Of a stretch of 64,000 bases of DNA, positions 1 to 54,474 are shown piece after piece. Location: the NCBI GenBank assembly GCA_050014075.1, contig JBEKEA010000004.1, positions 35,665 to 99,664 on the forward strand, read 5' to 3'. Source of the DNA: Sedimentisphaerales bacterium (GTDB lineage Bacteria; Planctomycetota; Phycisphaerae; Sedimentisphaerales; UBA12454). The notes under the pieces were generated by a model, which saw only the letters and a list, made by a program, of their open reading frames with translations, made no database searches and had not been told where the DNA came from. The stretch's first letter is position 1, and every line of letters starts with the position of its first letter. The position numbers and the translations under genes are program-made.

Positions 1-756
1 TTTGTCATTATGGATGTCATTACCGCTCTGACGGATTCAGCCCAACCAAACGGGTATATTAAGGATATGCGCAGAAGAGATATTGAACTTGCCAAAGGGT
101 GGGGGCAAATTGCCACCCCCCTTTCTGTACAAACCGCCGGCGGTATACAAAAATTAAACTGTGCCAATACCGAAGGCATTTTTCGTATAATTCAGTCGAT
201 TCCATCGCATAAGGCGGAGCCTTTTAAGCTTTGGCTGGCCAAAGTCGGCTATGAACGAGTGCAGGAAATCGAAGACCCTGAAATTGCGACTAAACGCACA
301 AGAGCTTTATATAAAGCCAAAGGATATAGCGATGACTGGATTGAAAAACGAATGCGTGGTATCGCTATCCGCGAAGAACTTACCGACGAATGGAAAAATC
401 ATGGTGTCAAAATTGAGAGAGAATACGAAATTTTAACAGCTGAAATATCCAAAGCGGCCTTTGGCCTTACTCCCAGCCAATACAAAAAACTTAAAGGATT
501 AAAACGAGAAAACTTGCGAGATCATATGACTGATTTAGAACTTATTTTTTCAATGCTTGGGGAGGCTTCAACAACACAGATTACAAGGGTTGAGGACCCC
601 GATGGTTTTGATGAAAATAAAAGCGTCGCGCAGCGAGGAGGAAATGTTGCTGGTATAGCGCGGAAAAAACTCGAACAGGAAACCCATCGCAAGGTGATTA
701 GCAGGGGAAATTATCTCCAAAAACCACAAAACAAGAGACTTAAAGATAATAAATAA
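1..756 (+). CDS. Bro-N domain (phage antirepressor-like) DNA-binding protein, 5'-truncated by window edge
   Basis: Frame is open from base 1 (FVIMDVI...). The IIQSIPSHKAEPFKLWLA and ELTDEW segments are typical of the Bro-N family. Confidence 0.8.
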   Translation, partial: FVIMDVITALTDSAQPNGYIKDMRRRDIELAKGWGQIATPLSVQTAGGIQKLNCANTEGIFRIIQSIPSHKAEPFKLWLAKVGYERVQEIEDPEIATKRTRALYKAKGYSDDWIEKRMRGIAIREELTDEWKNHGVKIEREYEILTAEISKAAFGLTPSQYKKLKGLKRENLRDHMTDLELIFSMLGEASTTQITRVEDPDGFDENKSVAQRGGNVAGIARKKLEQETHRKVISRGNYLQKPQNKRLKDNK

Positions 757-1836: not shown

Positions 1837-2703
1837 ATGACGACAAGGAAGATGATTATAAATGCTGATGACTTCGGGCTTTGCGAAGGCGTGAACAGGG
1901 CTGTTTACGAGGCGCATACCCACGGCGTACTGACCAGCGCAACGATTATGGCTAATATGCCGGCGGTTGATGAGGCAATAACGATTGCGAGAAAAACGCC
2001 GAGCCTGGGCGTTGGGGTTCATTTAAATGTGACGGAAGGTTCGCCGATTTCGGCGGCGAGCAAAGTTAGGGCGATTGTCGGCGAAGATGGGAAATTCAAA
2101 TACTCGGCATATACGTTTGTGATGAAAAGCCTTGTGGATAAAGGGGTGCTTGGGGCTTTGGAAGTAGAACTTGCAGCGCAGATTGAGTCGATTATCGATA
2201 AAGGGGTAGTGCCGACGCATCTGGATTCGCATAAACACTTCCATTGCTTTGGGCCTATATATAGGATAGTATGTTCGCTGGCCGAGCGATATAAAATCCC
2301 TGCAATTCGCTGGCCTTGGGAGCCTGCGACGGTTGGATATGGCGATTGGCCGCGGGTAGGAGGGTTCGGCGATAAGATGCGGGCGATGCTGTTGCGGTAT
2401 TTAACGCTGAACTGTCAGAAGATTGGCAGCAGGTTTATAAAGAATGATATTTTCTTCGGCGTTTTGCATACTGGCAGGATTGACGATAAATTCTGGGCGG
2501 AAATCGGCAAGACGCAGTTTGAAGGCGTGGCGGAGGTAATGACGCATCCGGGATATCCGAATGGGCTGACGCATACGCGGCTTGTTAATGAGCGGGAAGT
2601 TGAGCTGAAGTGGCTTTGCGATGCGACGACGAAAAAGATTCTTAACGAAGCGGGAATTGAGCTAACTCACTACGGAAAGTTAGCAGGAAGTGAAAATGAG
2701 TGA
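1837..2703 (+). CDS. YdjC/ChbG/HpnK-family carbohydrate deacetylase
   Basis: IINADDFG, GVGVHLN, HLDSHKHFH and EVMTHPG motifs. Confidence 0.9.
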   Translation: MTTRKMIINADDFGLCEGVNRAVYEAHTHGVLTSATIMANMPAVDEAITIARKTPSLGVGVHLNVTEGSPISAASKVRAIVGEDGKFKYSAYTFVMKSLVDKGVLGALEVELAAQIESIIDKGVVPTHLDSHKHFHCFGPIYRIVCSLAERYKIPAIRWPWEPATVGYGDWPRVGGFGDKMRAMLLRYLTLNCQKIGSRFIKNDIFFGVLHTGRIDDKFWAEIGKTQFEGVAEVMTHPGYPNGLTHTRLVNEREVELKWLCDATTKKILNEAGIELTHYGKLAGSENE

Positions 2704-3676: not shown

Positions 3677-4228
3677 ATGAAAAAAAAGAAAAGTCCAATT
3701 TTTGTATGGCTGTGGCTGATAGTAATAATTCTGTTTATAACCGGACTTGTGAAACATTTCAGTATAAAGAATTTCCAGGTGATAACGCCGGGTGTGCTTT
3801 ATACGAGCGGCCAGCCGCGGGGAATGGATTATACACGGTTATTATATAAGTATCATATCGCGACGTTTGTAAACCTTCGCAGCCCAAGCGAACATCGTGA
3901 AGCAAACTGGTATAGCGAGGAAACAGCGTGGATGAGGAGTAACGGCGCAAAATATATAGAACTGCCGGTGGAAAAAGATGTTCTTGACGACGGGATACCC
4001 AATACGGAGGCATCGCGTAAATTTCTGGAGATTATGAGCGACAGCGGCAATCTGCCGGTGCTTTTGCATGACAGCAGCGGCAAAAACAGGGTTTCATACC
4101 TGGCGTCGATATGGATGTTAAAGTCCGGCAATTTTACCCTGGAGCAGACGATAGAAAAGATTAAGAAAATAAAAAACCAGCCGCTAACGGAGCAGGAAAC
4201 GAATTTTGTGAAATCTCTTGCGCATTAG
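3677..4228 (+). CDS. Membrane-anchored dual-specificity/tyrosine phosphatase-fold protein, catalytic Cys replaced (HDSSGKNR)
   Basis: N-terminal TM; NF..ITPGVLYTSGQP; VNLR; P-loop PVLLHDSSGKNR versus canonical HCxxGxxR. Confidence 0.75.
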   Translation: MKKKKSPIFVWLWLIVIILFITGLVKHFSIKNFQVITPGVLYTSGQPRGMDYTRLLYKYHIATFVNLRSPSEHREANWYSEETAWMRSNGAKYIELPVEKDVLDDGIPNTEASRKFLEIMSDSGNLPVLLHDSSGKNRVSYLASIWMLKSGNFTLEQTIEKIKKIKNQPLTEQETNFVKSLAH

Positions 4229-4234
4229 GCAAGC

Positions 4235-5845
4235 TTAATTTTTGTGGAAGAGGGCTCCTTCGGTATCATTTGAACCGCTGCGTTCGGCAATTTGCTGATA
4301 AAAAACAGAATTAAACCTGCCATCTGCAATTAATTTTTTGTAGTCGTTGCCGGTAGCAATAATATACTGGCCGTCTTCATATTTTTTGTAAATCTCGGCA
4401 ATATCAGTGATTTTAGGAATGATTCTGCCTGTATAATGAATTGTGCGGGCAGAGGCGCCATTATAAGCGATAAGTTTTTCATTTGGGGCGACGATTTTGC
4501 CGATTTTCAACGCAAAAATTCTCGAAGGATTATTGTAATCCATCGGGACGAAAAAATAAGTAAAGAACATCATTATAATTGCGCAATAGCCGGCGAAAAG
4601 CAGAACAGTCGCGGCGATTTTGCGCTTTTGGACAAACAAAATAATCACAAGGGCGGCGATAATACAAAACATCAAAAAGATATGAATCGCGGGCCAGATA
4701 AAAGATTTTTCACTGGTTAGTGTCCAGTATATAAGTCCAATTACTCCGGCGGCAAAAACGATTGAATGGCCGGTAAAAAACAATTTAACATATTTAAGAC
4801 TGAAAACTCTATTCTCAAATATCATATCGTGCAGACAAATCGCGGCTAAAATAGAAAAAGCGGGAATTGCCGGCAGGATGTAGTGTTGGCGTTTTCCGCC
4901 GGAGATGCTCATAACCACAAGCTGTATAACTAACCATAACCACAGATACCCCATAACCGGCTTTTTTTTGTCCCAGATGGAACGGAAAGGCTCTATAACC
5001 GCGTGAGGCACAAAAGCGGAAAAAGGAGCGGTAAACACAAAGATAATTACCAGATAAAACCAGAACGGTTTTTGGCCTGAGGCGAAATCGCCCGCAAAGC
5101 GGTCAATGAATTCTCTTTTCCAGAAGGCAATGCTGCCGGTGGTTTTGGAGGCAATCATAAACAGCCAGGGCAGAACAATCAGAAGGAATAAAATCGTACC
5201 GATTATCGGCAGGGCGAGTTTTACTTTGTCCCATTTCCTGGAAATGGCGAAATAAAGAAAAATCGGCGGTGCAACAAGAGCCAGCGGAGCAGGACCTTTT
5301 GCGAGCATACCCAGGGAGAAACTAAGCCAGAAGACAAGCATATAGAGAACCTGCTGACGACGAGATTTTGACTCCATCGCGGTGTAAAAACTCATCATAG
5401 AAATGGTAACCAGCGAACAAAGCAGCATTTCGGGCCTGCCATTGTGCGAATATCTGATAAACCCCAGAGTTGAAATCCAAACGGCAGTTGAAAGAATCGC
5501 AATGGGAAACTGGAACCATTTGGCGGTGAAGAATAAAATAACCGCGGCAGAAAGAACGGCGGATGCAGCGCTTGGCAGACGAGTTGAAAACTCATCGACA
5601 GTGCCGGTAATTTTGGCAATAGAGGCGACAAGCCAATAGCTAAGCGGAGTTTTTTGCAGTCGCACCTGGCCGTTGAATTTGGGCAAAATCCAGTCACCGG
5701 TCTGGAGCATTTCTCTTGCGGTTACGGATACGAGGCACTCGTGATTGTCCAGCGGGCTATCAGAAAGCGTCCAAAAGGCAGCAACGACAGCATAAACCAT
5801 AACTGCGACAACCCAAAGAATCTTTGAGTTATTAGTTTCAATCAT
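4235..5845 (-). CDS. ArnT/GT83-like (GT-C) lipid-carrier-dependent glycosyltransferase
   Basis: HECLVSVTAREML..GDW..P..NG..RLQKTPL.YWL, LAKGP and KRQHYILP motifs; multiple TM helices. Confidence 0.85.
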   Translation of the reverse strand: MIETNNSKILWVVAVMVYAVVAAFWTLSDSPLDNHECLVSVTAREMLQTGDWILPKFNGQVRLQKTPLSYWLVASIAKITGTVDEFSTRLPSAASAVLSAAVILFFTAKWFQFPIAILSTAVWISTLGFIRYSHNGRPEMLLCSLVTISMMSFYTAMESKSRRQQVLYMLVFWLSFSLGMLAKGPAPLALVAPPIFLYFAISRKWDKVKLALPIIGTILFLLIVLPWLFMIASKTTGSIAFWKREFIDRFAGDFASGQKPFWFYLVIIFVFTAPFSAFVPHAVIEPFRSIWDKKKPVMGYLWLWLVIQLVVMSISGGKRQHYILPAIPAFSILAAICLHDMIFENRVFSLKYVKLFFTGHSIVFAAGVIGLIYWTLTSEKSFIWPAIHIFLMFCIIAALVIILFVQKRKIAATVLLFAGYCAIIMMFFTYFFVPMDYNNPSRIFALKIGKIVAPNEKLIAYNGASARTIHYTGRIIPKITDIAEIYKKYEDGQYIIATGNDYKKLIADGRFNSVFYQQIAERSGSNDTEGALFHKN

Positions 5846-5846
5846 A

Positions 5847-6572
5847 TTATTTTATCAAAATCCTTTTTGCTGTCAGGACGGCAGCAAAAGCAATTGCCGC
5901 CGTTTCAACTCTCAATATCGTATCGGTAAGTCTTACGGATTGCGCGTTAATTTTTTTCAGCATATTTTCTTCAGCTTCCGCCAGGCCGCCTTCAGGACCA
6001 ATGAAAGCTATTATATCATATTCATCGAGATTAAAAATTGTAATTGATTTAGCATCAGATGTCAAAGAACCGAAAATAATTTTAGCGCCTGGATAATCAG
6101 TTTTCAATTTTTCGAGTACATCTTTGAAATCCGCGGGTTTGTCGATTACAGGCAGAAATAACCTTTGACACTGTTTTGCCGATTCGAGAGCGATTGTATC
6201 GAGCCGTTGCTGCTGAATTGATTGCTTTGCAGTCCTTTCGAAAATGACAGGGACAATCCGGTCAACGCCTAATTCGGTACATTTTGCCACAAGCATCTCA
6301 AAACGCTCGCCTTTGGCAATACTGGACGCTATTATGATTCTGTTTTTTTGAGGTTTTGGATAATTTTTAGTATCTTTAATGGTCAGTCGGACAAGATTTT
6401 TTTCTATTTTGTCAATAACAGCCTGTGCGATAGTTCCGCTGCCGTCGAACAATTCGACAGAATCACCATTTTTTAGCCTGAGAACTTTTTTGAGGTGGCG
6501 AAACTGGTCGCCGGTAAGAACTGCGCCGGTGTCCTGATTAATCGTATTACAGAAAAATCTTGCCGTTCTCAT
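5847..6572 (-). CDS. rsmE: 16S rRNA m3U1498 methyltransferase
   Basis: HLKKVLRL, KCTELGVD, FIGPEGGL, ILRVETAA. Confidence 0.95.
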   Translation of the reverse strand: MRTARFFCNTINQDTGAVLTGDQFRHLKKVLRLKNGDSVELFDGSGTIAQAVIDKIEKNLVRLTIKDTKNYPKPQKNRIIIASSIAKGERFEMLVAKCTELGVDRIVPVIFERTAKQSIQQQRLDTIALESAKQCQRLFLPVIDKPADFKDVLEKLKTDYPGAKIIFGSLTSDAKSITIFNLDEYDIIAFIGPEGGLAEAEENMLKKINAQSVRLTDTILRVETAAIAFAAVLTAKRILIK

Positions 6573-7375
6573 AATGGGGCATTTGAAACCGTTCCATTGC
6601 CCAGGAATTCGGCGATTTTATTGTAGTCTTCGGCGCCGTGACAGGCCGGTTCGTATTCGAAAATGGTTTTACCGTAGCTTGGGGCTTCGGCGAGTTTGAT
6701 ATTTCTTCGTACAAAGGAGGGAATAATTTTGGCATTGCTCCAGGGGCACTGATTAGTACGGGCGCTGTCGAGGAATTTATCGATATCGCTTTTAATCTCT
6801 TCCGAAAGCGAAGTTCTGCTGTCGAACATACAGAGAAGTATTCCGCTTACCTTGAGGGAAGGATTAATTCTTTTACTGACAAGCGTAATGGTCTGGAGCA
6901 GTTTTCCCAGACCCTGGAGTGCGAGAAAATGCGGCTGGAGCGGGATAATAACTTCTTCCGCGGCGGCAAGAGCGTTTAAAGTTAAAAGGCCCAGCGAAGG
7001 AGGACAATCGATAATCAGATAGTCGAAATTAAGTTTTGATTTTGCGATAGCTTCGCGAAAGATGATTTCTCTGCCGACGACGCTGACAAGTTCGCTTTCT
7101 GCTCCGACAAGGTGAATATTGGAACCAAGCAAAAAGAGGTTTGGCCTTGCTTCGATAAGAGCCTGGTCAAAATCGGCAGAGCCGGTCAGTACCTTGTATG
7201 TGCCGAACTCGACTTTGTCAGGCTCGATGCCGAGATGTATTGTAAGATGTGCCTGCGGGTCAAAATCGGCAACGACGACTTTTGCCCCCTTTTGCGCCAG
7301 AGCTGCAGCGATGTTGACGACTGAGGTTGTCTTTCCTACGCCGCCTTTCTGGTTGAGTAAGACTATTTTTCGCAT
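6569..7375 (-). CDS. parA: ParA/Soj-family ATPase
   Basis: NQKGGVGKTT deviant Walker A, DFDPQAH, IDCPPSLG, LAEAPSYG. Confidence 0.9.
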   Translation of the reverse strand: MRKIVLLNQKGGVGKTTSVVNIAAALAQKGAKVVVADFDPQAHLTIHLGIEPDKVEFGTYKVLTGSADFDQALIEARPNLFLLGSNIHLVGAESELVSVVGREIIFREAIAKSKLNFDYLIIDCPPSLGLLTLNALAAAEEVIIPLQPHFLALQGLGKLLQTITLVSKRINPSLKVSGILLCMFDSRTSLSEEIKSDIDKFLDSARTNQCPWSNAKIIPSFVRRNIKLAEAPSYGKTIFEYEPACHGAEDYNKIAEFLGNGTVSNAPL

Positions 7376-20054: not shown

Positions 20055-20377
20055 AGCTGATCGGCATTATCAGGCAGGCATCCGCAAATCTGCGTTATTT
20101 AAACCAAAAAAGTATGTATTGGAAAAAACTGCCGGATTGTAGAGGAAGAAATTGCCGGTAACCCCGATTAAACTCCGAAGAAAGTATTTGTAAATGCCGA
20201 TTTATACGTCAAAAACAGCGTTTTAATAAACAAAAGGTGTAACTAGTTGGTATGGCATAATATTTGCACCTCTTTTCATCTCATTTACCTGTGACTAATC
20301 AAGTTTTTAGAATGGCCGCAGGTTGTAAGGAAGGTAAAAGTGATTTTTTTAACGCTGCAAGAAAGGGGGTGATTATT

Positions 20378-21160
20378 ATGACAGTCAGTGGAATGGGACA
20401 AAGTATGTCTATGCTGAGTTTGCTTCAGCCGCCCAGTGCAAACGACATAGCCAGTCGTATCATGAAAAAACTTGATACGAATGGAGATGGCGTCTTGAGC
20501 GCGGATGAAATCAGCAAAGGCGGAAAACATACAAAAATGATTCAGGCCGCCGATGCTAATGGCGATGGACAAGTTACTATGGACGAGCTTCTCGCCGCCA
20601 TTTCTAAGTATCAGCAGATGGGCAGCATGCAGCCGCCTGGTGCGAGCGACATAGCCAGCAGTATCATAAAAAACCTTGATACGAATGGAGATGGCGTCTT
20701 AAGCGCAAGTGACTCCAGCGCAAGCGGAGCAACTGCAAAAATAATTCAGGCCGCCGATGCTAACGGCGATGGGAAAGTTACTATGGAGGAGCTTACCGCC
20801 TACATTTCCAAGCAACAGCAAGGCATGATGGGTAAAATGCATTCGCATCATCATCATGGTGCAGGCAACATGGCCAATAGTATTATGGCCGCCTTTGATA
20901 CGAATGGAGATGGAGTCTTAAGCACAAGTGAAGTCAGTGCAAGCGGAGCAGATGCAACAATGATTCAGGCCGCCGATGCTAATGGCGATGGACAGGTTAC
21001 CATGGATGAGCTTGTCGCCTATCTTTCGAATAAGCAGGCACAGTCCGGGCAGACCAATCAAGGCAGTTCTACCTTGAGCAACCTGGCCTTGAATTACTAT
21101 GACGAAGCTCAAACAATGCTGGATCCTACGCAAAGCTCTAACCTTAGTTTAGTTGCTTGA
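20378..21160 (+). CDS. EF-hand calcium-binding protein with three tandem two-EF-hand units
   Basis: 3x [DTNGDGVLS...AADANGDGxVTMxEL]; RBS aaggggg before ATG 20378. Confidence 0.85.
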   Translation: MTVSGMGQSMSMLSLLQPPSANDIASRIMKKLDTNGDGVLSADEISKGGKHTKMIQAADANGDGQVTMDELLAAISKYQQMGSMQPPGASDIASSIIKNLDTNGDGVLSASDSSASGATAKIIQAADANGDGKVTMEELTAYISKQQQGMMGKMHSHHHHGAGNMANSIMAAFDTNGDGVLSTSEVSASGADATMIQAADANGDGQVTMDELVAYLSNKQAQSGQTNQGSSTLSNLALNYYDEAQTMLDPTQSSNLSLVA

Positions 21161-21889: not shown

Positions 21890-22525
21890 TTACGTCAACT
21901 CAACTGACCAATATGCGTGGTCGAGGAATTGTTTCCAGCTATGATACTTTTGAATGCTTAAATGCAGGTGAACGGTCGGATTGCGTTTTGGTTTTACCGG
22001 CAGCTTAACAAGAGTCATTCCGGCCTGCCTGGGCGTCCTGCCTCCTTTTCTGGCGTTGCAATCGGTACAGGCACAAACGAGATTTTCCCAGGATGCGGTC
22101 CCGCCGCTGCTTTTCGGAATGACATGGTCGAGGGATAGTTCGTTAGTGGGGAATTTTTTCCCGCAGTACTGGCATCGATTGGCGTCGCGGGCGAAAATGT
22201 TACGCCGGTTGAATTTGACTTCGTTTCTCGGCAGGCGGTCATAGAATAACAATCTGACTATTCGGGGCACAGCTATATGATAATTGACCGTTGAAATCCA
22301 GTCGTGTTCGTCAGGCTCGAAAGACCTTTTTATCTGGCTGACATCCCGCCAGCTTTCAAAATTGTAATTGTAATACTGGCCCTGTTCGTAGGATATGACT
22401 TCGGCAAGCTCCCTGCACAGCATACATAGCGCTCTTTTGACATCTATGATGCGCAAAGGCATATAGTACTTATTAAGGACAAGTACGTTACAACTCAAAC
22501 CAGATTGAGTTTCAATTAACGCCAT
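21890..22525 (-). CDS. HNH endonuclease (McrA-like)
   Basis: [17 protein letters not shown]...[16 protein letters not shown]...[12 protein letters not shown]. Confidence 0.9.
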
Positions 22526-32735: not shown

Positions 32736-33623
32736 ATGGCAAAAGTATTACATATTTTTAATACAATCAATCGCCTGAGAGAACGATATTATGCCGCATC
32801 TATCGGGAAGCAATCGCTTATAAAAATAATCAGTGAAGCGGAGATTGCCGAGCAGGTTTATAACTCCAATGCCATCGAGAACAGCACTCTTAGTCTTGAA
32901 GAAACAGAGAAAATCCTTTTACAAATAGACCTGGACAGATACATTTCGGAGCGGGAAATTTTTGAGGCGAAAAACTTGGCGCGTGTAGTTTCTTATATCG
33001 ATACAAAAGCCAAAGAACAGGAACTGACGCTTGATGTAATTCTGCTGCTTCATAAAATGCTTATATCGAATATCCGGGACGATGTTGCCGGAAGATTTCG
33101 CAAGGCTGGCGAGTATGTGCGCGTGGCCAACCATATAGCGCCGGGGCCGGAAGAAGTAACAGGCAGACTGGAAAAAATGCTTGCGGAGTATAACGCAAAC
33201 AGCCATGAAAATATTATAAAACGCATCGCGATGCTGCATCTTACCTTTGAACAGACGCACCCATTTGTTGATGGTAATGGCCGTATCGGAAGAGTAATAA
33301 ACAATTATTTGCTTATACGAGAAGGTTTTGTGCCTGTGAATATTAAATTCATTGACAGGGAGATGTATTACGAGGCGTTTAAGGAGTTTAACGAAAAAGG
33401 CACTGCAAAAATAATGGAGGAAATAGTCGGCAAAGCGATTACAAATAGTTATCACAAAAGGCTTGCATATCTGGAAGGCTCGCAGATTATGACGCTTGCC
33501 GAATATGCAAAAAAGTATAAAATATCACACTCAAACTTGATAAATAAGGCAAATCGCCAAACCATAGAGGCTTTTCTTGAAAAAGGCGTTTGGAAGATTG
33601 GCGTAATGCAGAATAAAAAATAA
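32736..33623 (+). CDS. Fic-domain protein (AMPylase family)
   Basis: HPFVDGNGRIGR catalytic motif; N-terminal SNAIEN inhibitory motif (class II arrangement); short HTH-like tail. Confidence 0.93.
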   Translation: MAKVLHIFNTINRLRERYYAASIGKQSLIKIISEAEIAEQVYNSNAIENSTLSLEETEKILLQIDLDRYISEREIFEAKNLARVVSYIDTKAKEQELTLDVILLLHKMLISNIRDDVAGRFRKAGEYVRVANHIAPGPEEVTGRLEKMLAEYNANSHENIIKRIAMLHLTFEQTHPFVDGNGRIGRVINNYLLIREGFVPVNIKFIDREMYYEAFKEFNEKGTAKIMEEIVGKAITNSYHKRLAYLEGSQIMTLAEYAKKYKISHSNLINKANRQTIEAFLEKGVWKIGVMQNKK

Positions 33624-45209: not shown

Positions 45210-46880
45210 TTATTGGAACGAAGAGTCGGATAATTCTTTTGGATATAGAGCTATTATGATACCATCATCGAGTTCTTTTATGATCTTCATGTTACAAAAC
45301 TGCTGAAGTTCCTGCGGGTCATAAAGATATTTTCGAAAGTGTCTTGCGAACCATACCAGATAAACACTTTCTCCGGTCTTAAGAGCCGATTTAAATTCCA
45401 GAAGTTGCTTTTCCATATCTTTCCGGCGGCTTTGGCTGATATTTTTGAAGTAATCAGATTTTACCGGCAGCATATAAGCGTTGATATCCGTAAGAATATA
45501 AATACCATTAGTTTCATTAGTATATATTTTCCCATTTAATTTGTTGGACTTGAGCCAGGCGATTGTATCGGAATCTTTCCAGGATGAACTTGAGAATCCA
45601 AAACCATTTTGAGATAGTTGCTTGGTAATTTCCATAGTATAATAGAAGCCTGTATTATAAACCCAGATACTTATGCCGATGCAGAATCCGGCTATAAGGC
45701 CGTATCGAATAATTCTTCGGCTCGAACGGTTTTTAATTATAGAAAAGTTTGAGCCTGGACCGAACAAATTTATTACCAATATGCCCATAAGGATAACAAT
45801 CGCAGGATATAAGGGAGATAAAAGTCTGTCGTCGATAAAATCCATACTGGTACTTGTCGCGGAATAAATGATTGCCGTCATATAAAGAGCAAGAAACAAC
45901 AAAACAGTAATTATCAACCAGTCAGCTTCTTTTGACTTTATGGTTTTATAAATATAAACTGCTAAAATCGCCGAAACGAAGATGGAAAACAAAGCAAAAA
46001 CCAATCCTCCGGCAGTAAACTCTTTGGGGTTTTGCAGGATGAACCAGCTCCCAATAATATTCCCGGCAGTTTTAATATTTTCGAGCAGCGTTATAGAGGA
46101 CGGAACTCGAGGCCCCATCGCGGTTCCTGATAAAATCCGGTTTCTTAGAAGCCATATTCCAAAAGGAAGCACCGAAACAACACCCCACAGGAAAGTGAAA
46201 ATCAGTTTTCTGCGAAAATGCTTAATGCCCAAAAAAAGCACAACAGCGCCGACCGGCAGCAGCACAATCCCTACATAACGTGTCATACAGGCAGCAGATG
46301 TAACGACGGCCAATAACAGAATCAATTTAAATGTCGGATTCTTAATCGCTTCGGGCACAAGAAAGAGAAAAACTGTTATCAGCACTATAAATAAAGGCTC
46401 GCTCCAGGCCCAGCAGCAGACTAAAACAAGCGGTTTAGACAGCAATGTGAGAACAGAGCATATTACAGAAAAAATCAGCGAACCTGAATACCTTAATATA
46501 CATAATCCGGACACAAATATAATGAGGCCGAACGATACGGCATTTATCAGCCGGGCGGCGAGAAAATCATTCATTCCGCATAACTTAAAAAATGCAATAA
46601 TTACAGGATACAAAGGCGGCCATGCCAGGAGGTAGGAGCCGTCATGTTGCGTAAATGAATGGTTTTCCAGCAAATTACGTGCACATGAGATATAACCGAC
46701 CGAATCCCCGGAAAGGCCCACGCCGTAATTGCCGGTAGCCCAAAAAATCAGCACAAAACCTATAATCCCTATAAAAAGAGGACCGAGGAATGATAACCGG
46801 CGATGGTTTAGAGGCAAAATGGTTTCTTTAATTTTAGAGGTTTCGCGGTGGTTATGTTTTTGCTGTATATTTTTTTTCAT
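45210..46880 (-). CDS. GT-C-fold membrane glycosyltransferase (distant ArnT/PMT-like)
   Basis: DS..Y...ARNL, WPPLYP, WSEPLF, TRYVG; about 12 TM helices; end of a glycosylation operon. Confidence 0.7.
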   Translation of the reverse strand: MKKNIQQKHNHRETSKIKETILPLNHRRLSFLGPLFIGIIGFVLIFWATGNYGVGLSGDSVGYISCARNLLENHSFTQHDGSYLLAWPPLYPVIIAFFKLCGMNDFLAARLINAVSFGLIIFVSGLCILRYSGSLIFSVICSVLTLLSKPLVLVCCWAWSEPLFIVLITVFLFLVPEAIKNPTFKLILLLAVVTSAACMTRYVGIVLLPVGAVVLFLGIKHFRRKLIFTFLWGVVSVLPFGIWLLRNRILSGTAMGPRVPSSITLLENIKTAGNIIGSWFILQNPKEFTAGGLVFALFSIFVSAILAVYIYKTIKSKEADWLIITVLLFLALYMTAIIYSATSTSMDFIDDRLLSPLYPAIVILMGILVINLFGPGSNFSIIKNRSSRRIIRYGLIAGFCIGISIWVYNTGFYYTMEITKQLSQNGFGFSSSSWKDSDTIAWLKSNKLNGKIYTNETNGIYILTDINAYMLPVKSDYFKNISQSRRKDMEKQLLEFKSALKTGESVYLVWFARHFRKYLYDPQELQQFCNMKIIKELDDGIIIALYPKELSDSSFQ

Positions 46881-46884
46881 CCGG

Positions 46885-47865
46885 TCATCTTTTTGAATAG
46901 TAATCTATGGCACGTTTTATTCCTGTTTCAAAATCTATTTTATATGTGAAGTCGAAGGCCTTTTGTTTTGTCATATCGCCGCCTCTGGCAAAGACGCCTT
47001 CAGGTTTGTCTGATAGTCCGCGCACTTCGGGGTGATATCCGCAAATTTCAGCGGCAAGAACTGCAAATTGTTTGAAACTCGTAAAGATGCTTGTGGACAG
47101 GTTCAAAGCGCCGGCATTATCAATTTTATCCATTGTTTTTAAAACGCCGTCAACGCAATCTTCTATATGAATGAAGTCCCGCATCTGGTCGCCGGTTCCC
47201 CAAACGTTCAGCACGGGCTGGCCTTTGCTTTGCATTGCCCGTTTACATATACTCGGAAACGGATACGCATCGTCCTGGTCTTCGCCATAACCGGAGAATG
47301 GCCGATATATAACGGTTTTTAAACCATACTTTTCGTAAGCGAGTTTGGCAAGATACTCATGTGTGAGTTTCGCCCAGCCGTAAGTCATATCGGGCATACC
47401 GATATTATCGTCTAAAGTTATCATATCCTCTTTCAGCAGGCAGTAATTTCCCTGGCGCTGAAGACTGATTGGATATGCGGCACTTGAGCTGAAACAAATT
47501 GATTTGGCCGGTTTCGTTTTTATCGCCCATTGCCAGAACGAGGCGTCTATTGAAAGGTCATCCGCGACGGCAAGAGGATGGTTCTCAATCATTAATCGGC
47601 CGCCGACCATTGCGGCAAGGTGAAAACAATAATCGAAATCGTCATCCAGGTTTTGGAGAAAAAATTGGCGGCAATCCATACGAAAGAAATGAAAATTGGA
47701 ATAATCCAGAGGATTAAACAACGGCCAGCCGATATCGGGGTCAATGCCGCCTGTGTACTTTGCTATGTTATCAACTGCGTAAACTTCATCGCCCTTATCA
47801 AGAAGTCTTTTTACGATATGACGGCCGACAAAACCTGCGGCACCTGTTACGAGTATCTTACTCAT
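46885..47865 (-). CDS. NAD-dependent nucleotide-sugar epimerase (extended SDR)
   Basis: TGAAGFVG, HLAAMVGG, SSSAAY, YGWAK, RPFSGYG, WGTG.Q.RDF. Confidence 0.9.
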   Translation of the reverse strand: MSKILVTGAAGFVGRHIVKRLLDKGDEVYAVDNIAKYTGGIDPDIGWPLFNPLDYSNFHFFRMDCRQFFLQNLDDDFDYCFHLAAMVGGRLMIENHPLAVADDLSIDASFWQWAIKTKPAKSICFSSSAAYPISLQRQGNYCLLKEDMITLDDNIGMPDMTYGWAKLTHEYLAKLAYEKYGLKTVIYRPFSGYGEDQDDAYPFPSICKRAMQSKGQPVLNVWGTGDQMRDFIHIEDCVDGVLKTMDKIDNAGALNLSTSIFTSFKQFAVLAAEICGYHPEVRGLSDKPEGVFARGGDMTKQKAFDFTYKIDFETGIKRAIDYYSKR

Positions 47866-48773
47866 TTGAAATGTTTCCTGTAAAGATTAAAAGCATTAAC
47901 AGATTCCGGCGGCAAATACTGCAAAATACGCTCGGGATCTTCTTTGAGGTCTTTAACTATCTTTAGATTATTCTCATAACCGAGATATTCCTGCCGCATA
48001 TCTTTTACAAGGTCGTGCTCGTTTCGGGCCTGATACACGGTTGGCTTTCCATATATCACTTTATTCCCCTTGGCCTGAACATAATAGCTTGCCCAGATAT
48101 CGTCCATTCGGCCTATATGCGGAAACAGAAAATAATCTTTGAGGATTTTGCCGTTTAATATTGTATTTTGAGAGTTGAATGGAGAAAAAGCGTTTCCGGC
48201 AATGGGAAATAAAGTCGGGTCGAATTTGCATTCAGGAGCGTGTTCCATTCGGCAGATGGCGTCTATATCGGGGTCGCCGTCCCAGAAATCGGCCTGAATA
48301 TCAGGACATATTATTTTCCTGCTGACGTTTTTATAATCTCTTTTGGACAAAAGCTGCAGAGGAAATCCTCTGTGCCACAGATGCGATTCGTTTGTCGCTC
48401 CTATCGGGTCGAACGCAGGCAAATCGGTTTTATAGTAATTAACTTCCGTCTCTCTGCCTATCATAATATTTTGTCCCCAATCGTCATAGGGGATGTTGTC
48501 ATCGTCTATCACGGCAACTATTTCAGCGCCCATATCGTAAGCCCAGAGCAGGCCGAAGTTGCGGCGCTGGATACAGTTCCAGCCGATAGCATCGGATAGA
48601 GCTTTATCATATTTTTCCTGCTGCTGCGGCGAAACGTAAACGCCTTTTTTCAATTTGTAATCGGACGGCGTTTTTTTGTCGCCTATCGCGATGACCGTCC
48701 AGTCAGCCATAGAATCGAAACGCTGAATTGCCTTGGTAATGGGGTTTATTGTTGTAGTAACGATTGCTTTCAT
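47862..48773 (-). CDS. STELLO/DUF288 (GT75-related) protein
   Basis: IVTTTIN, W.VIAIGDKKTP, RRNFG.L.A, IDDDN, FNSQNT, RMDDIW.SY. Confidence 0.65.
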   Translation of the reverse strand: MKAIVTTTINPITKAIQRFDSMADWTVIAIGDKKTPSDYKLKKGVYVSPQQQEKYDKALSDAIGWNCIQRRNFGLLWAYDMGAEIVAVIDDDNIPYDDWGQNIMIGRETEVNYYKTDLPAFDPIGATNESHLWHRGFPLQLLSKRDYKNVSRKIICPDIQADFWDGDPDIDAICRMEHAPECKFDPTLFPIAGNAFSPFNSQNTILNGKILKDYFLFPHIGRMDDIWASYYVQAKGNKVIYGKPTVYQARNEHDLVKDMRQEYLGYENNLKIVKDLKEDPERILQYLPPESVNAFNLYRKHFK

Positions 48774-48782
48774 AATTAACCT

Positions 48783-49520
48783 TTAAACGGGATTGTTTGG
48801 TTTTATACGCTGCGGGGACAAGAATCTTGTTTTCCATGCCGTACGGAAATAAACGAATGTTTGCAGAAAAGTGTTGGCAGAAGTTCCTTCTGTCCGGGCT
48901 TTCCATTTGCAGGGGATTTCAGTAACTTTGGCGCCGCATCGCAGCGGCTTGATGAGACATTCCAGCAGGAACGGATGTTTCAACTCTTCCCATACGATTC
49001 CCTGGAGAACGGATTTGCGATACAACCGATAAGCATACGTCAGGTCGGTAAGCGCGGTGCCGTATAAAATTTTAAAGAACTTCTGAAAGGAATAATTTAA
49101 AAGCAGCTTTGTTGTGCTGTATCCCTTGAAACTTCCTTTTTGAATCCAGCGGCTGCCGGCAACTATATCCCAGTTTCCTTCGCTCATTTTTTTGATGAAA
49201 TCGGGGATTGCTTCTGGATCTGTTTCGAAATCACTTGCCATTAACATAATATAATTACCTGAAGCGATACTAATGGCTTCCCGCAGTGCGCCGCCAAGGA
49301 AGGGAAGTTTTTGCTTATGGATGCGGATTAAATCGGGATGCTGACTATTATTCCTCTGGACAATTTCCATACTTGCCGGTGTAGTTCTGTCGGCAACCAC
49401 AATTAATATCTCCTTTAAGTGTTCGCCGGAAAGCCTGAAAATGGCATCGACGGTCTGCTGTAGTGAATATGTCTCATTTAGTACGGGAAGTATAAATGTA
49501 ATATCAGGAGACTTATTCAT
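48783..49520 (-). CDS. GT2 glycosyltransferase (polyprenol-phosphate-sugar synthase-like)
   Basis: LPVLNE, LGGALREA, MASDFETDP, VAGSRW, TDLT..YRLY. Confidence 0.85.
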   Translation of the reverse strand: MNKSPDITFILPVLNETYSLQQTVDAIFRLSGEHLKEILIVVADRTTPASMEIVQRNNSQHPDLIRIHKQKLPFLGGALREAISIASGNYIMLMASDFETDPEAIPDFIKKMSEGNWDIVAGSRWIQKGSFKGYSTTKLLLNYSFQKFFKILYGTALTDLTYAYRLYRKSVLQGIVWEELKHPFLLECLIKPLRCGAKVTEIPCKWKARTEGTSANTFLQTFVYFRTAWKTRFLSPQRIKPNNPV

Positions 49521-50237: not shown

Positions 50238-52091
50238 ATGAAGAAGTTATTTTACATTTCAGTTTTTGTTATCACACTTTTAATTTCAATTAATGTTAAA
50301 GCCGGCACAATTATCAGTTGGGGCAATACGGTTTATGATAGCGAGAAGATGATGGCAAGTGACTTTGTGCAGGTCAGCGGCGGCGCCTCTCACAGTGCAG
50401 CCGTTAAGGCAGATGGGTCGGTTCTATGCTGGGGATACAACGGCGGCGGCCAGTCAAACTATCCGGCCGGTAATGACTTCAGAATGGTTTGTGCTGGCGG
50501 TAACTGCACTGTAGCAATCAAAACAGACGGCTCACTGACTGCATGGGGCTACAATGTATACCACCAACTCGAGGTTCCTGCCGGTAATGATTATGTTACG
50601 ATTTCAGTCGGCCATAATAATGCACTTGCAGTAAAAACTGACGGCTCAATAGTCAGCTGGGGCAATACAGCAACTCCTCCGACAGGAAATAATTACGTCG
50701 CGGTTTCTTGCGGCTACACACATTGTATTGCATTAAAAACTGACGGTTCTATTGTCGCCTGGGGCACCGATAGTGGTTATGGCGAACTTACAGTCCCGGC
50801 TGGAAACGATTTTACAGCCATTTCTGCCGGTGATTATTTCAGCATCGCTTTAAAACAAGATGGAACAATTGTTTGCTGGGGCAAAATTAACACCGCGCCT
50901 TCCGGAACTTTTAAAGCTGTTTCTGCGGGCAGTGCACACGGTCTTGCTTTAAGAACTGACAATTCTCTTTGCTGCTGGGGCAGTATCACCAGCGCACCTT
51001 CAGGAAACAATTATAAAGCGATAGACGCAGGCTGGAGTCATTGTCTTGCAATTAAAACGGATGGTACAGTTGTCGGATGGGGTGATAACCTCGATGCTAA
51101 GTCGAATCCGCCAACCGGAGCAGATTTTAAAGTTCTTTCGTACGGCGATGACCATGGTATTGCGATAAGAAACGATAATTCTCTCTTCGGCTGGGGCCAT
51201 AACAATAGCGGTCAGATAAACGTGCCTGCCGGTAATGATTACGCGGCGGCTTCCTGCAGCGTCGCTCACAGTCTTGTCTTGAAATTCGATGGGACAGTAA
51301 TTGGCTTCGGCGATAATACTCGTGGTCAAATAAATGTGCCTTCCGGCACTTATTCGGCAATCGCTGCAGGGCATTTTCACAGTCTTGCCCTTAGAACTGA
51401 CGGCTCTCTTGCTTCCTGGGGCAACGATACTAATGGAGTTGTGTCCAACACTCCTTCAGGAAATAACTTTGTCGCGATTTCTGCGTCAGCAAGCGGTTTC
51501 GGCAGCAGGACAGGTTTTAACAGTATGGCTTTAAGGTCGGACGGTTCAGTTGTTTGCTGGGGCAAAAATGAATACGGCCAGGTTTCAAATACTCCGACAG
51601 AAAATGATTTTATAGCTGTCGCAATGGGGACATCTCATTGCGTTGCATTAAGGTCAAACGGCACAATTGCCTGTTGGGGCAGCCTGTCAACACCGCCTGC
51701 AGGGAGCAATTATGTGAAAATAGCCGCAGGTGATGGCTTCAGCTTAGCCATAAAATCAGATGGTTCTGCTGTGACCTGGGGCTCGGTAGCTGCTCCTCCT
51801 GCGGGATACTCATATTTGGATGTCGCAGGCAGCAGCTATTCAACCGGCCCCGCAGCATTGAAATCGTATTGTCCGTACGCTTTAATCGGCGATTTAAACG
51901 GCAATTGCAAAGTCGGCTGGGACGATTTGAATATTATGTTTGAGAATTGGCTCAAGAGTGATGCGACAGCGGATATTGCTCCTGTGCCGAGCGACGGCAC
52001 TGTTAATTTCCTGGATTATACCGCTTTGGCTGAAAACTGGTTAATCGATTGTCAGCAAACGCCGGGCAATCCTGCCTGTGTGGCAAAATAA
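50238..52091 (+). CDS. Secreted RCC1-like repeat (beta-propeller) protein with C-terminal dockerin-like module
   Basis: Signal peptide; many 'AIxAGxxH.LAL..DG...WG' repeats; GDLNGNCKV...W / DGTVNFLDY..LAENW tail. Confidence 0.85.
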   Translation: MKKLFYISVFVITLLISINVKAGTIISWGNTVYDSEKMMASDFVQVSGGASHSAAVKADGSVLCWGYNGGGQSNYPAGNDFRMVCAGGNCTVAIKTDGSLTAWGYNVYHQLEVPAGNDYVTISVGHNNALAVKTDGSIVSWGNTATPPTGNNYVAVSCGYTHCIALKTDGSIVAWGTDSGYGELTVPAGNDFTAISAGDYFSIALKQDGTIVCWGKINTAPSGTFKAVSAGSAHGLALRTDNSLCCWGSITSAPSGNNYKAIDAGWSHCLAIKTDGTVVGWGDNLDAKSNPPTGADFKVLSYGDDHGIAIRNDNSLFGWGHNNSGQINVPAGNDYAAASCSVAHSLVLKFDGTVIGFGDNTRGQINVPSGTYSAIAAGHFHSLALRTDGSLASWGNDTNGVVSNTPSGNNFVAISASASGFGSRTGFNSMALRSDGSVVCWGKNEYGQVSNTPTENDFIAVAMGTSHCVALRSNGTIACWGSLSTPPAGSNYVKIAAGDGFSLAIKSDGSAVTWGSVAAPPAGYSYLDVAGSSYSTGPAALKSYCPYALIGDLNGNCKVGWDDLNIMFENWLKSDATADIAPVPSDGTVNFLDYTALAENWLIDCQQTPGNPACVAK

Positions 52092-52160: not shown

Positions 52161-53807
52161 TTATTTTGCATTTTCGGATTTTCTAAACAGAGCGCCGGCT
52201 ACATTTCTATTGATTTGCACTTCAGCCTTTTCGTTGTAGTAAACCATATTGAGCCGATTCTTCGATTGGAGTTCTTTCAATTCGTCATCGGTAGCAAGAA
52301 TCCAGTCGCCTTTATCGTAAAGCTGATAAATCATATTTACGTCTTTTATTTTAGGAATTTCTCTTCCGAAATAATGGACTACTTTTGGAGAAACATAGCT
52401 GTATGCCACAAGATTATTATCTGATGGTATTTTTTTAGATATTTCAGCAGTAAATTTTCTGGTATAATTATTATTATCAAATGGAGCCGAAAGGCTGATA
52501 AAACAAATTACAAACAGGCAATAACCTCCAAAGATTAATCCACAGCCAAGAGTTGTTTTGTTTTTTGCAAATGACGCCAGAATCCACACTATTAGTATAA
52601 TCGCTGTTATGCCGAGAATTAATACTTTAACGAAAAGCTCAGAATGAACAGCGGCAAAGTAAATTACCCCTGCAATAACAGACAAGGCGATAATTACGAT
52701 ATGGAAAATAAGAAAACTTTTTGTAAATTTATCCGTAAAGGCTTTTCGTGTGTAAATTATATCTTCCAAAACAATACCAACCAGGATGGCGATAACGGGC
52801 ATTATCGGCAGTATATAATGTTTGCGTTTGCCGCCGCAGATAGTTAAAAAAATCAAGTCTGTTATAAAACAAAGCCATAGAAACAACATAACTTTTTGTT
52901 TTTTCCCCCAGATTTTGTAAAACGGAGATATTAAGGCGACAGGGACAAGGGCTACCCAGGGTGCGATGAATGCAAAAGTATAAATTATGTATAAATAAAA
53001 TGGATAATTACCTGGGGCGTATTCGCCGAACAAACGGTCATAAAAATTATGTTTCCATACGACTAAATCCCAGTTTACTCTGTAACCGATAACAAGCGGC
53101 CACGGCAATACTATAGCAAGAAAGATGATTACTCCGACAACGGGCAGCAGTTTGGGCAGGATTTTCCATTGCCTGAATATGACAATGTATAAAAACAGCG
53201 GAATTAAAACTAATGGAATCGGCGCAGGACCTTTAGCGAGCATTCCCAGCCCGAAACTTATCCAGAAAACAAGCATATATATTATTTGTTTTTTGCGAAT
53301 TTGTTCGATAACGGCAGAGTAGAAAGAAAGAAAGCATAAAATTACAAAAAATGTAAAAATCATCTCCGGTCTTGCATTATGAGCATAATTGATATATCCA
53401 AATGATGTTGACCAGACCAGGGCGGAAATTATTGCGACACGAATATCCAGCCATTGTTTGACAAAATATAAAATGGCAAGAGCAGATAAAAATGCAAATA
53501 AAGCGCTTGGAAATCTTGCGGTAAATTCGTCAATATTGCCTGTTATTTCCCCCAAACCGGCTACGAGCCAGTAGGAAAGCGGCGTTTTTTCAAGTCGAAG
53601 CTGGCCATTGCAGGAAGGTAAAATCCAATCATTGCTCCCAAGCATTTCACGCGCAGTAATAGAAACAAGACACTCATGGTTTTCCATTGCTCTGCCGGAA
53701 ATACCCCAAACGGCGGTTAGTGCCGACAGGACTAATGTCAAAATCAGAAGTATGTTTTTATTTTTCCCGGCTTCTTCAGCAGTCAGGTTGTTCATATCAT
53801 TTATCAT
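52161..53807 (-). CDS. ArnT/GT83-like glycosyltransferase, close paralogue of 4235-5845
   Basis: HECLVSITAREML..NDW..P..NG..RLEKTPLSYWL, LAKGPAP, KRKHYILP. Confidence 0.85.
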   Translation of the reverse strand: MINDMNNLTAEEAGKNKNILLILTLVLSALTAVWGISGRAMENHECLVSITAREMLGSNDWILPSCNGQLRLEKTPLSYWLVAGLGEITGNIDEFTARFPSALFAFLSALAILYFVKQWLDIRVAIISALVWSTSFGYINYAHNARPEMIFTFFVILCFLSFYSAVIEQIRKKQIIYMLVFWISFGLGMLAKGPAPIPLVLIPLFLYIVIFRQWKILPKLLPVVGVIIFLAIVLPWPLVIGYRVNWDLVVWKHNFYDRLFGEYAPGNYPFYLYIIYTFAFIAPWVALVPVALISPFYKIWGKKQKVMLFLWLCFITDLIFLTICGGKRKHYILPIMPVIAILVGIVLEDIIYTRKAFTDKFTKSFLIFHIVIIALSVIAGVIYFAAVHSELFVKVLILGITAIILIVWILASFAKNKTTLGCGLIFGGYCLFVICFISLSAPFDNNNYTRKFTAEISKKIPSDNNLVAYSYVSPKVVHYFGREIPKIKDVNMIYQLYDKGDWILATDDELKELQSKNRLNMVYYNEKAEVQINRNVAGALFRKSENAK

Positions 53808-53814
53808 TTTAATA

Positions 53815-54474
53815 TTATTTGCGGTCTGTAATGACGATTTGCGGCAGCGGATTTGGAATTTTATCTATAACTCCCATTTGATTAAGCAGAAAAGCCAGTT
53901 TTTCCATATTGCCATTAAGATAGGGCAATAGATAAGGATTTTTTTCGGGACTCCAGTCATAACTTATCATTTCATTAACTACATAAGGTACATCCTTTTT
54001 TTCAATAAGCAAGCGATAAGCGGCAATTACGCCGCCCGCTCGCTGGGTTCCTGAGGCGCAGTGAACTAACACAGGTTTGTCTTTTTCTTTTGCCTGACAT
54101 ATTATTGCTATTGCTTTGGCATAATCGTTAATGTCTCCAGTTCCATTGCCGCCCAAGAAAAAGTAGTGTCTTTCAATGCCAAGTTTTTCAGCAGCTTCCT
54201 GTTCTTCGTCTTTGTCAGCAGTCTTAGTTGAATCACCAGTCAGGTTTATAATTACTTTTATATTATACTTACGCAAGGTTCTTTCAACTAACCATCTTGA
54301 TAATTGTCCGCTGCGGTAAATCTTACCATCTTCCACTATACCAAATCTTTTTGGAACGAAATCGTCCTTTAGCGATCCCTTCCATAGACTCAAAATCCCT
54401 ATGAGACAGAGCAGAACAGCAGCAATTATTAGTTGTCGTTTATAACGCAGCATTGTTTTAATGCCTTTCTTCAT
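53815..54474 (-). CDS. Membrane-anchored DSP/tyrosine phosphatase-fold protein (intact HCxxGxxR)
   Basis: N-terminal TM; G.IYRSGQ; INL; PVLVHCASGTQR. Confidence 0.85.
   Translation of the reverse strand: MKKGIKTMLRYKRQLIIAAVLLCLIGILSLWKGSLKDDFVPKRFGIVEDGKIYRSGQLSRWLVERTLRKYNIKVIINLTGDSTKTADKDEEQEAAEKLGIERHYFFLGGNGTGDINDYAKAIAIICQAKEKDKPVLVHCASGTQRAGGVIAAYRLLIEKKDVPYVVNEMISYDWSPEKNPYLLPYLNGNMEKLAFLLNQMGVIDKIPNPLPQIVITDRK

Follow-up and report, generated by a model that had tools for sequence, protein, structure and literature searches.

The Arn (4-amino-4-deoxy-L-arabinose, Ara4N) system and the systems that modify lipid A with hexosamine, Lgm of Bordetella and Flm/NaxD of Francisella, are the closest described counterparts of the locus reported here, with which they share the enzyme logic of an ArnC-type GT2 glycosyltransferase, a predicted deacetylase of the YdjC family and an ArnT-type GT-C glycosyltransferase. 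In the lipid A galactosamine pathway of Francisella and Acinetobacter, the YdjC-family enzyme NaxD deacetylates undecaprenyl-phosphate-N-acetylgalactosamine (PMC11279074). No component with a dual-specificity phosphatase (DSP) fold, active or dead, was found described in Arn, Lgm or Flm/NaxD. The locus studied here does have one. It lies in a stretch of 64,000 nucleotides (the window, to which all positions refer) from a Sedimentisphaerales bacterium of the Planctomycetota (assembly GCA_050014075.1, contig JBEKEA010000004.1, positions 35,665 to 99,664 of the forward strand). The gene at 3677-4228(+), called DSP-D below, encodes a protein of 183 amino acids with a DSP fold and a predicted membrane anchor, in which the nucleophilic cysteine is replaced by aspartate, and it is the last gene of an operon of Arn/NaxD-like composition. 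A paralogue with an intact active site, DSP-C, is found at 53815-54474(-).

According to its proposed role, Caulobacter CtpA, a protein tyrosine phosphatase (PTP) homologue, is needed for the dephosphorylation of lipid A before a sugar, galacturonic acid (GalA), is added (PMC9393093). Compared by description, this proposed removal of the 1/4' phosphates of lipid A is the role that may be ascribed to DSP-C and to the ancestor of DSP-D; CtpA keeps its active-site residues, unlike DSP-D, and is not reported in a GT2/YdjC operon. LpxE and LpxF offer a proposed parallel for the dephosphorylation of a lipid by DSP-C before glycosylation. In a planctomycete, Rhodopirellula baltica, a PTPMT1-type phosphatase of DSP fold acts on phosphatidylglycerophosphate, a membrane lipid phosphate (PMC3576122). 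PTPMT1 and TpbA are structural matches of the DSPs of the window, but they are active Cys enzymes of weak similarity (E ~1e-3 to 1e-6), and PTPMT1-type phosphatases and TpbA are not linked to GT2 or GT-C genes. An earlier reading of the window from its letters alone (the sequence-only reading) knew of no DSP partner in characterised Arn or Lgm systems. That remains correct for a pseudophosphatase partner, which is without precedent, but is too broad otherwise, since the PTP homologue CtpA is reported to act on lipid A. For lipid A, ArnT and undecaprenyl systems, our literature search, outside which the likeliest phosphatase-family survey lay, returned neither a pseudophosphatase nor a DSP component.

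To our knowledge, no bacterial pseudophosphatase is known, and full-text searches turned up none; such proteins are well studied in eukaryotes. Like the pseudophosphatases STYX (Cys-to-Gly), MTMR and OCA, DSP-D keeps the PTP/DSP fold with the nucleophilic Cys replaced; selection on it is purifying, and an active paralogue exists alongside it. Unlike them, it is bacterial, membrane-anchored, probably extracytoplasmic and encoded in a glycolipid operon; the eukaryotic proteins act in protein-phosphorylation or phosphoinositide networks and have no sequence-level orthology to DSP-D. The PFA-DSP family of eukaryotes has OCA as its pseudophosphatase sister clade in yeast and plants (PMC13573052). 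PFA-DSP/Siw14 is also the best structural and profile match of DSP-D, but DSP-D is not of the Siw14 type: the signature of that family is HCxxGxHR as opposed to HDSSGKNR, and its members are soluble and cytosolic, whereas DSP-D is anchored by a transmembrane (TM) helix and belongs to a bacterial operon.

Fold, membrane anchor and altered active site of DSP-D

DSP-D scores above the Pfam cut-offs of four PTP-clan models (PTP-NADK, 1.4e-7; Y_phosphatase2; PTP-SAK; Y_phosphatase3), and its DSPc score falls slightly under the cut-off. In the AlphaFold2 (AF2) model (pLDDT 88.6, pTM 0.82), an N-terminal helix (residues 7-28) precedes a canonical DSP core, whose P-loop lies between a strand (128-131) and a helix (138-149). 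A Foldseek search against the PDB ranked Siw14 and AtPFA-DSP1, two inositol-pyrophosphate phosphatases, on top, followed by DUF442, TpbA and PTPMT1 (TM-scores of 0.6-0.78 over all five), and the C101D mutant of PRL-2 was also among the matches. In line with this, a profile search of PDB sequences gave PFA-DSP1 and Siw14. By its sequence and modelled fold, DSP-D belongs to the PTP/DSP superfamily.

Residues 7-25 are the sole strongly hydrophobic segment of DSP-D (best 19-residue hydropathy window 2.7). Across 81 orthologues, the mean net charge is +4.6 in the N flank of this helix and +1.4 in the C flank, the N flank being the more positive one in 76/81. By the positive-inside rule, an N-in, C-out signal anchor is therefore predicted, which means that the globular domain probably faces the periplasm. 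GT-C enzymes act on the membrane's periplasmic side. TpbA of Pseudomonas aeruginosa is periplasmic, and indicates that DSP-fold enzymes can work outside the cytoplasm. Two motifs are invariant in the DSP-D clade and occur in neither case in DSP-C, namely LYTSGQPRGMDYTRLLYKYHIA and R..EHRE.NWY.EE..W; the segment from R68 to W85 that holds the latter is a candidate for a new ligand or partner surface.

The P-loop of DSP-D reads H131-D-S-S-G-K-N-R138, and its Asp codon, GAC, occupies 4070-4072. This stretch was the same in contigs of four independent public peat metagenome runs, which rules out a sequencing error or a strain artefact. A protein search with DSP-D found 770 homologues; among the best 120 of them (51-100% identity, from Phycisphaerae and Sedimentisphaerales metagenome-assembled genomes, MAGs), the position of the Cys is taken by Asp in 91, Gly in 27, Ser in 1 and Cys in none. 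Scanning one genome per GTDB species gave 80 DSP-D loci, all of them in Planctomycetota MAGs, and thus 81 orthologues with the window. Of the 80 species, 39 carry Gly here, 38 carry Asp and 3 carry Cys; with the window, Asp also reaches 39. Every one of the 81 is an intact open reading frame (ORF) of ~179-186 amino acids. The pairwise ratio of nonsynonymous to synonymous substitution rates (dN/dS) is 0.06-0.4, cross-species identity is 48-88%, and the alignments have 22-38 invariant columns.

A neighbour-joining tree was rooted on Cys-type relatives; its basal orthologue has HC, its backbone state is Gly, and Asp appears in at least four separate clades, each time derived from Gly. The codons found at this position are TGC/TGT, GGC/GGA and GAC/GAT, so every step on the way from Cys (TGC) through Gly (GGC) to Asp (GAC) takes one substitution. 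The P-loop Arg is kept in 81/81 orthologues. The R(T/S)G signature that starts with this Arg has become RV(A/S) in 66/81, the downstream YR pair has become W(L/M/A) in 80/81, and the three Cys-bearing orthologues are likewise without both signatures. Cys, T/S-G (T/S/A-G among DSP-C orthologues) and YR are all retained in DSP-C and in the wider DSP family. DSP-D thus lacks what defines an active Cys-based PTP/DSP (the HCX5R nucleophile, R[S/T]G and YR) and has what defines a pseudophosphatase, namely a kept fold, lost catalytic residues and purifying selection. Because the nucleophile has been lost together with the R(T/S)G and YR signatures, the DSP-D clade is, as judged from its sequences, a genuine pseudophosphatase family.

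These results bear on several statements of the sequence-only reading. The HDSSGKNR loop with GAC at 4070 is real, and the Cys-less state proved to be widespread, with no decay. The description as a Cys-to-Asp pseudophosphatase holds for the loss of Cys, to which the two lost signatures are to be added, but not for the end state, as the family alternates between Gly and Asp. Similarly, GAC is indeed two substitutions away from a Cys codon, but these were single-base steps by way of Gly and not one event.

A Gly-type clade was also observed in which the P-loop Gly is missing and acidic residues have been gained (HGSGDDER or similar), a second, independent route to an acidified P-loop (orthologues L033, L043, L051, L056, L068-L074 and L077-L079). 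One of its members, L072 (CAYGYP010000280.1), is labelled as a Bathyarchaeia MAG, yet shows the planctomycete order GT2-DSP-D-ArnT2-DSP-C at 50-65% identity; the contig is probably mis-binned.

An exhaustive profile search extended the family to 1902 related representatives. About nine 50%-identity clusters are DSP-D proper, and the remaining representatives are mostly N-terminally anchored DSPs of 180-230 amino acids with an intact HC..G..RTG. The closest Cys-type relative of DSP-D, P0127, has the juxtamembrane and helix-1 motifs in common with it and is encoded in a DSP-GT2-DSP(HC)-LAB_N operon (LAB_N, lipid A biosynthesis N-terminal domain); two further Cys-type members face DegT-GT2-GT-C operons. 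Metagenome loci of the Cys-type family, many of them short, were collected with a 7-sequence alignment as seed and their neighbours were classified by jackhmmer. Of the 52 informative ones, 12 have a GT-C gene directly beside the DSP gene and 4 have a Kdo-kinase-like gene there. Apparent DSP-GT-C gene fusions at these loci were dismissed, the overlaps being open upstream frames in high-GC DNA. Taken with the other Cys-type GT2 and GT-C contexts, the P0127 operon indicates that membrane DSPs are repeatedly associated with polyprenyl-phosphate sugar modules. In the ancestor, the position after GT2 was probably held by an active enzyme, and these sequence comparisons indicate that DSP-D is derived from an active membrane DSP of a type that still stands beside GT2 in other lineages. 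The representatives also include two tandem two-domain membrane DSP proteins, P0159 and P0141. P0159 has a Gly-type domain (HGKNGAHR) and a Cys-type domain in one chain, so the pairing of a pseudophosphatase with an active phosphatase recurs as a fusion.

Operon context and the active paralogue DSP-C

The operon has the order YdjC-GT2-DSP-D (locus 1; Table 1), with an overlap of 14 nt between YdjC and GT2 and a gap of 9 nt between GT2 and DSP-D. The ArnT1 gene is convergent with DSP-D, with 6 nt between the stop codons. The YdjC protein is a clear member of its Pfam family and matches the NCBIfam models HpnK (1.7e-54) and ChbG (1.1e-48). GT2 matches the NCBIfam ArnC model over its full length (4e-61, under the equivalog cut-off), and its matches among solved structures are ArnC (2e-54, residues 9-324) and GtrB (7e-33). 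On account of these model and structure matches, GT2 is predicted to be a polyprenyl-phosphate glycosyltransferase, its sugar specificity not being implied by the match. ArnT1, the GT-C that was compared with solved structures, matched one only, ArnT (5ezm, 2.5e-16). Since the GT2, YdjC and GT-C proteins all score under the NCBIfam equivalog cut-offs, they are relatives and not orthologues of the model families. The window has in common with systems of the Arn, Lgm and Flm/NaxD type an ArnC-type GT2 and an ArnT-type GT-C, all three of its GT-Cs matching both PMT_2 and the ArnT model. No ArnE/F-type flippase gene is evident beside the DSP-D operon in the window, where no search was aimed at one; some related loci carry a LAB_N protein instead of such a flippase.

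Linkage was counted over the informative loci among the 80 species loci, and a gene was called ArnT-like at ≥35% identity to a window paralogue. GT2 lies directly upstream of the DSP-D orthologue in 73/73 loci, and YdjC lies upstream of GT2 in 69/70. The sequence-only reading had described a repeated coupling of DSP-fold genes to ArnT. Surveyed across the Planctomycetota, the linkage is conserved, with a convergent ArnT-like gene within 4.5 kb of DSP-D in 53/70 loci and within 250 bp in 38/70, but the invariant partners are GT2 and YdjC. A Cys-bearing DSP-C (HC[AST]AG..R) adjoins DSP-D in 20/70 loci, placed either directly after it or in a facing DSPC-ArnT2 operon. In the Sedimentisphaerales MAG that carries the orthologue L006, a pair of DSP-C and ArnT genes (L081) is found elsewhere on the same 930-kb contig, as in the window.

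Two kinds of additional genes were seen at orthologous loci. A Kdo/WaaP-type (lipopolysaccharide kinase) gene stands between YdjC and GT2 in L083 (5047-6387) and L041 (3010-4338); these insertions hint at lipopolysaccharide (LPS), and at a kinase/phosphatase pair acting on it. About ten loci (L043, L074, L079, L073, L061, L069, L064, L033, L077 and L078; also L169, 3497-3820, and L084, 6753-7064) encode a small LAB_N membrane protein upstream of ArnT2 or DSP-C; this protein, which may be a flippase or an accessory, has no counterpart in the window.

At locus 2, ArnT3, the PAP2 gene and DSP-C follow one another on the same strand, with ArnT2 downstream. Both DSP-fold genes encode TM-anchored proteins and stand beside an ArnT-like GT-C gene, as had been read from the letters, and ArnT1 and ArnT2 are 42% identical end to end (E 2e-164). 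ArnT3 is 23% identical to ArnT1 and has DEPRYA...FDKP in its first loop. The HCASGTQR loop claimed for DSP-C was confirmed in its ORF, with a DSPc match (2e-10); the gene calls in the database begin at Met8 (54453). CX5R is intact in DSP-C and not in DSP-D, and among DSP-C orthologues the Cys is kept in 117/118 and YR in 111/118. The AF2 model of DSP-C (pLDDT 87) has the same architecture as that of DSP-D, and its top Foldseek match is TpbA of P. aeruginosa. DSP-D and DSP-C are 26% identical (E 1e-7), and hhalign aligned their profiles over the full length, including the juxtamembrane segment (probability 98.3%, E 2e-14). DSP-C is paired with an ArnT-like gene even where it is located elsewhere in the genome. 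DSP-C is predicted to be active and probably still dephosphorylates a lipid substrate before glycosylation.

Possible roles of DSP-D

The explanation we favour, with a probability of roughly 0.5, is that DSP-D arose from an active membrane DSP and is now a non-catalytic, periplasm-facing accessory in a pathway for polyprenyl-phosphate amino sugars. In such a pathway, the ArnC-type GT2, working at the cytoplasmic face, would charge polyprenyl phosphate with an N-acetylhexosamine, the YdjC enzyme would deacetylate the lipid-linked N-acetylhexosamine, compare NaxD in Francisella, and the resulting polyprenyl-phosphate-hexosamine would be flipped across the membrane. The ArnT-like GT-C would place the amino sugar on an acceptor in the envelope, lipid A or the LPS core being the most plausible. 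On the outer side of the inner membrane, DSP-D may then serve as a subunit for binding or scaffolding, which would retain a lipid that bears phosphate (either the donor after flipping or lipid A as the acceptor) and/or tether GT2, the GT-C or DSP-C, and DSP-C, like the product of the adjoining PAP2 gene, may prepare or recycle a lipid phosphate. We infer in this way the part of a phospholipid-binding partner, which the sequence-only reading had also put forward for DSP-D. The inserted Kdo/WaaP-type kinase of L083 and L041 and the PAP2 gene at locus 2 hint at lipid A as the acceptor.

Several observations weigh against this explanation. The P-loop drifts, with Gly or Asp in the place of Cys and HGSGDDER in one clade, which speaks against strict conservation of a phosphate pocket and for a role that is carried by other surfaces. 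Apart from L001, the nearest relatives of the window organism (L002-L016) lack a GT-C gene beside the operon, and physical coupling to ArnT is therefore not obligatory. The acceptor need not be lipid A. Finally, the repeated change from Gly to Asp, together with the invariant EHRE/W/EE motif, could stand for new chemistry rather than none.

Compatible and overlapping with the accessory explanation is a proposal that names DSP-C as the main partner: DSP-D would be its regulatory or targeting subunit, forming a heterodimer via the shared fold and TM helix and controlling or localising lipid dephosphorylation. Homology between the two proteins extends from end to end and takes in the juxtamembrane segment, the window genome encodes both, as does the Sedimentisphaerales MAG with L006 and L081, and in 20/70 loci DSP-C follows DSP-D directly on the same strand or lies in a facing DSPC-ArnT2 operon. 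Moreover, pseudophosphatases are commonly paired with active relatives, as in the case of MTMR or OCA (PMC13573052). The invariant neighbour of DSP-D, however, is GT2 and not DSP-C, which is non-adjacent in most loci, and we regard this proposal as tentative and on balance unlikely. That DSP-D is a decaying or functionless relic, its position held by operon inertia, we consider hardly credible. The loss of the catalytic Cys and the variable P-loop would suit a relic, but all 81 ORFs are intact and conserved in length, the dN/dS, identity and invariant columns given above speak for constraint, and the position after GT2 has been kept in 73/73 loci despite rearrangements elsewhere. Pseudogene decay is effectively refuted by the intact ORFs, the dN/dS values and the kept position.

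DSP-D might still be an enzyme, with Asp132 as a nucleophile (through a HAD-like acyl-phosphate) or a general base, or with a site made of E72-H73-R74/E81-E82 that acts on a lipid-linked sugar phosphate. The independent origin of Asp from Gly at least four times suggests selection for a carboxylate in the pocket, His131 and Arg138 are retained, and the new invariant acidic/His/Arg/Trp motif lies where DSPs have the loop next to their active site. Against this stand the Gly found in half of the orthologues and the clade without the P-loop Gly, conservation elsewhere being equal, as well as the disappearance of R(T/S)G and YR of the active relatives. We know of no PTP-fold enzyme with Asp as its natural nucleophile. 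A changed chemistry is thus improbable in our view, and a plain swap of the nucleophile for Asp132 in particular is disfavoured by the fact that Gly is equally common and ancestral to Asp and that the other signatures are lost. The acidic drift of the P-loop (Asp132, or Asp135-Asp136) with an acidic/aromatic motif nearby also fits a self-satisfied, structurally locked pocket.

A further possibility, doubtful but specific, is that the P-loop of DSP-D, formerly an anion hole, has become a pocket which accepts the zwitterionic head group of polyprenyl-phospho-hexosamine. In this pocket, the phosphate would be bound by Arg138 and backbone amides, and the ammonium sugar by Asp132 (or Asp135-Asp136), E72/E81/E82 and Trp/Tyr residues. 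DSP-D would act as a receptor or escort in the periplasm, taking the flipped, GT2-made donor and passing it to the GT-C. If this were true, DSP-D would be the first pseudophosphatase of bacteria to serve as a lipid-carrier chaperone, and such an escort could possibly be a functional replacement for the ArnE/F-type flippase accessory.

Other genes of the window and significance

Table 1. Features of the window, with positions, strands and supporting evidence.
Feature	Position	Strand	Evidence
YdjC-family carbohydrate deacetylase (NaxD/HpnK/ChbG-like), first operon gene	1837-2703	+	Pfam YdjC 6.9e-60
ArnC/GtrB-type GT2 polyprenyl-phosphate glycosyltransferase (predicted), C-terminal membrane helices	2690-3667	+	Glycos_transf_2 7e-31
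DSP-D, single-pass membrane-anchored DSP-fold pseudophosphatase	3677-4228	+	ORF, Pfam, AF2/Foldseek, orthologues
DSP-D, predicted signal-anchor TM helix, residues 7-25	3695-3751	+	hydropathy, AF2 helix 7-28
DSP-D, specific invariant motif R68...E72-H73-R74...W78...E81-E82...W85	3878-3931	+	invariant columns, alignments A1 and A2
DSP-D, degenerate P-loop HDSSGKNR, Asp132 replacing the nucleophilic Cys, Arg138 kept	4067-4090	+	
ArnT1, ArnT-like GT-C, convergent with DSP-D	4235-5845	-	PMT_2 1.6e-13; NCBIfam ArnT 5.8e-41
ArnT2, ArnT-like GT-C paralogue	52161-53807	-	PMT_2; NCBIfam ArnT model, under equivalog cut-off
DSP-C, membrane-anchored DSP, intact active site HCASGTQRAG...YR	53815-54474	-	Pfam DSPc 2e-10
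DSP-C, intact P-loop HCASGTQR	54040-54063	-	
PAP2-family membrane lipid phosphatase (LpxE/LpxF/PgpB type)	54490-55371	-	Pfam PAP2 9.8e-16
ArnT3, third ArnT-like GT-C	55368-57035	-	PMT_2 1.1e-15; NCBIfam ArnT 5.1e-45
556-residue ORF	45210-46880	-	no Pfam match; weak NCBIfam match, LA_3751/LA_3752 putative glycosyltransferase
NAD-dependent epimerase	46885-47865	-	
303-residue ORF	47862-48773	-	no Pfam match
Short DPM/AglJ-like GT2	48783-49520	-	
BRO-N domain protein	10-756		
rsmE	5847-6572		
parA-like ATPase	6569-7375		
dnaA	14203-15609		
EF-hand/dockerin protein, probably secreted	20264-21160		
HNH endonuclease	21890-22525		
Fic/DOC protein	32736-33623		
RCC1-repeat protein, probably secreted	50238-52091		
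Pel9A-like beta-helix protein with dockerin domain, probably secreted	57507-58970		

A third module for lipid-linked sugars, comprising four genes, was observed at 45210-49520(-); together with the three ArnT-like genes it makes the window unusually rich in polyprenyl-phosphate-sugar machinery. The window contains dnaA, parA-like and rsmE genes along with further housekeeping genes (def, fmt, rsmB and tsaD) and is chromosomal. Modules of dockerin type are notable for a peat planctomycete. The BRO-N, HNH and Fic/DOC genes may be mobile or defence-related singletons, unrelated to DSP-D.

DSP-D is a pseudophosphatase that probably belongs to an Arn/NaxD-like pathway as an extra component, and we found no prior description of such an arrangement. 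Across one planctomycete class it is a fixed and selected part of an Arn/NaxD-like operon for envelope modification, and its closest active relatives hold the same operon position in other lineages. The passage from the active state through Gly to Asp, with a convergent gain of Asp, is a natural series in which to ask why a dead phosphatase fold is kept. DSP-D points to an unrecognised accessory step in the transfer of lipid-linked amino sugars, for example the handling of donor or acceptor on the periplasmic side. With CtpA as a precedent, this suggests that, next to PAP2, DSP-fold proteins with a membrane anchor form a second family of phosphatases for the remodelling of lipid A or glycolipids.

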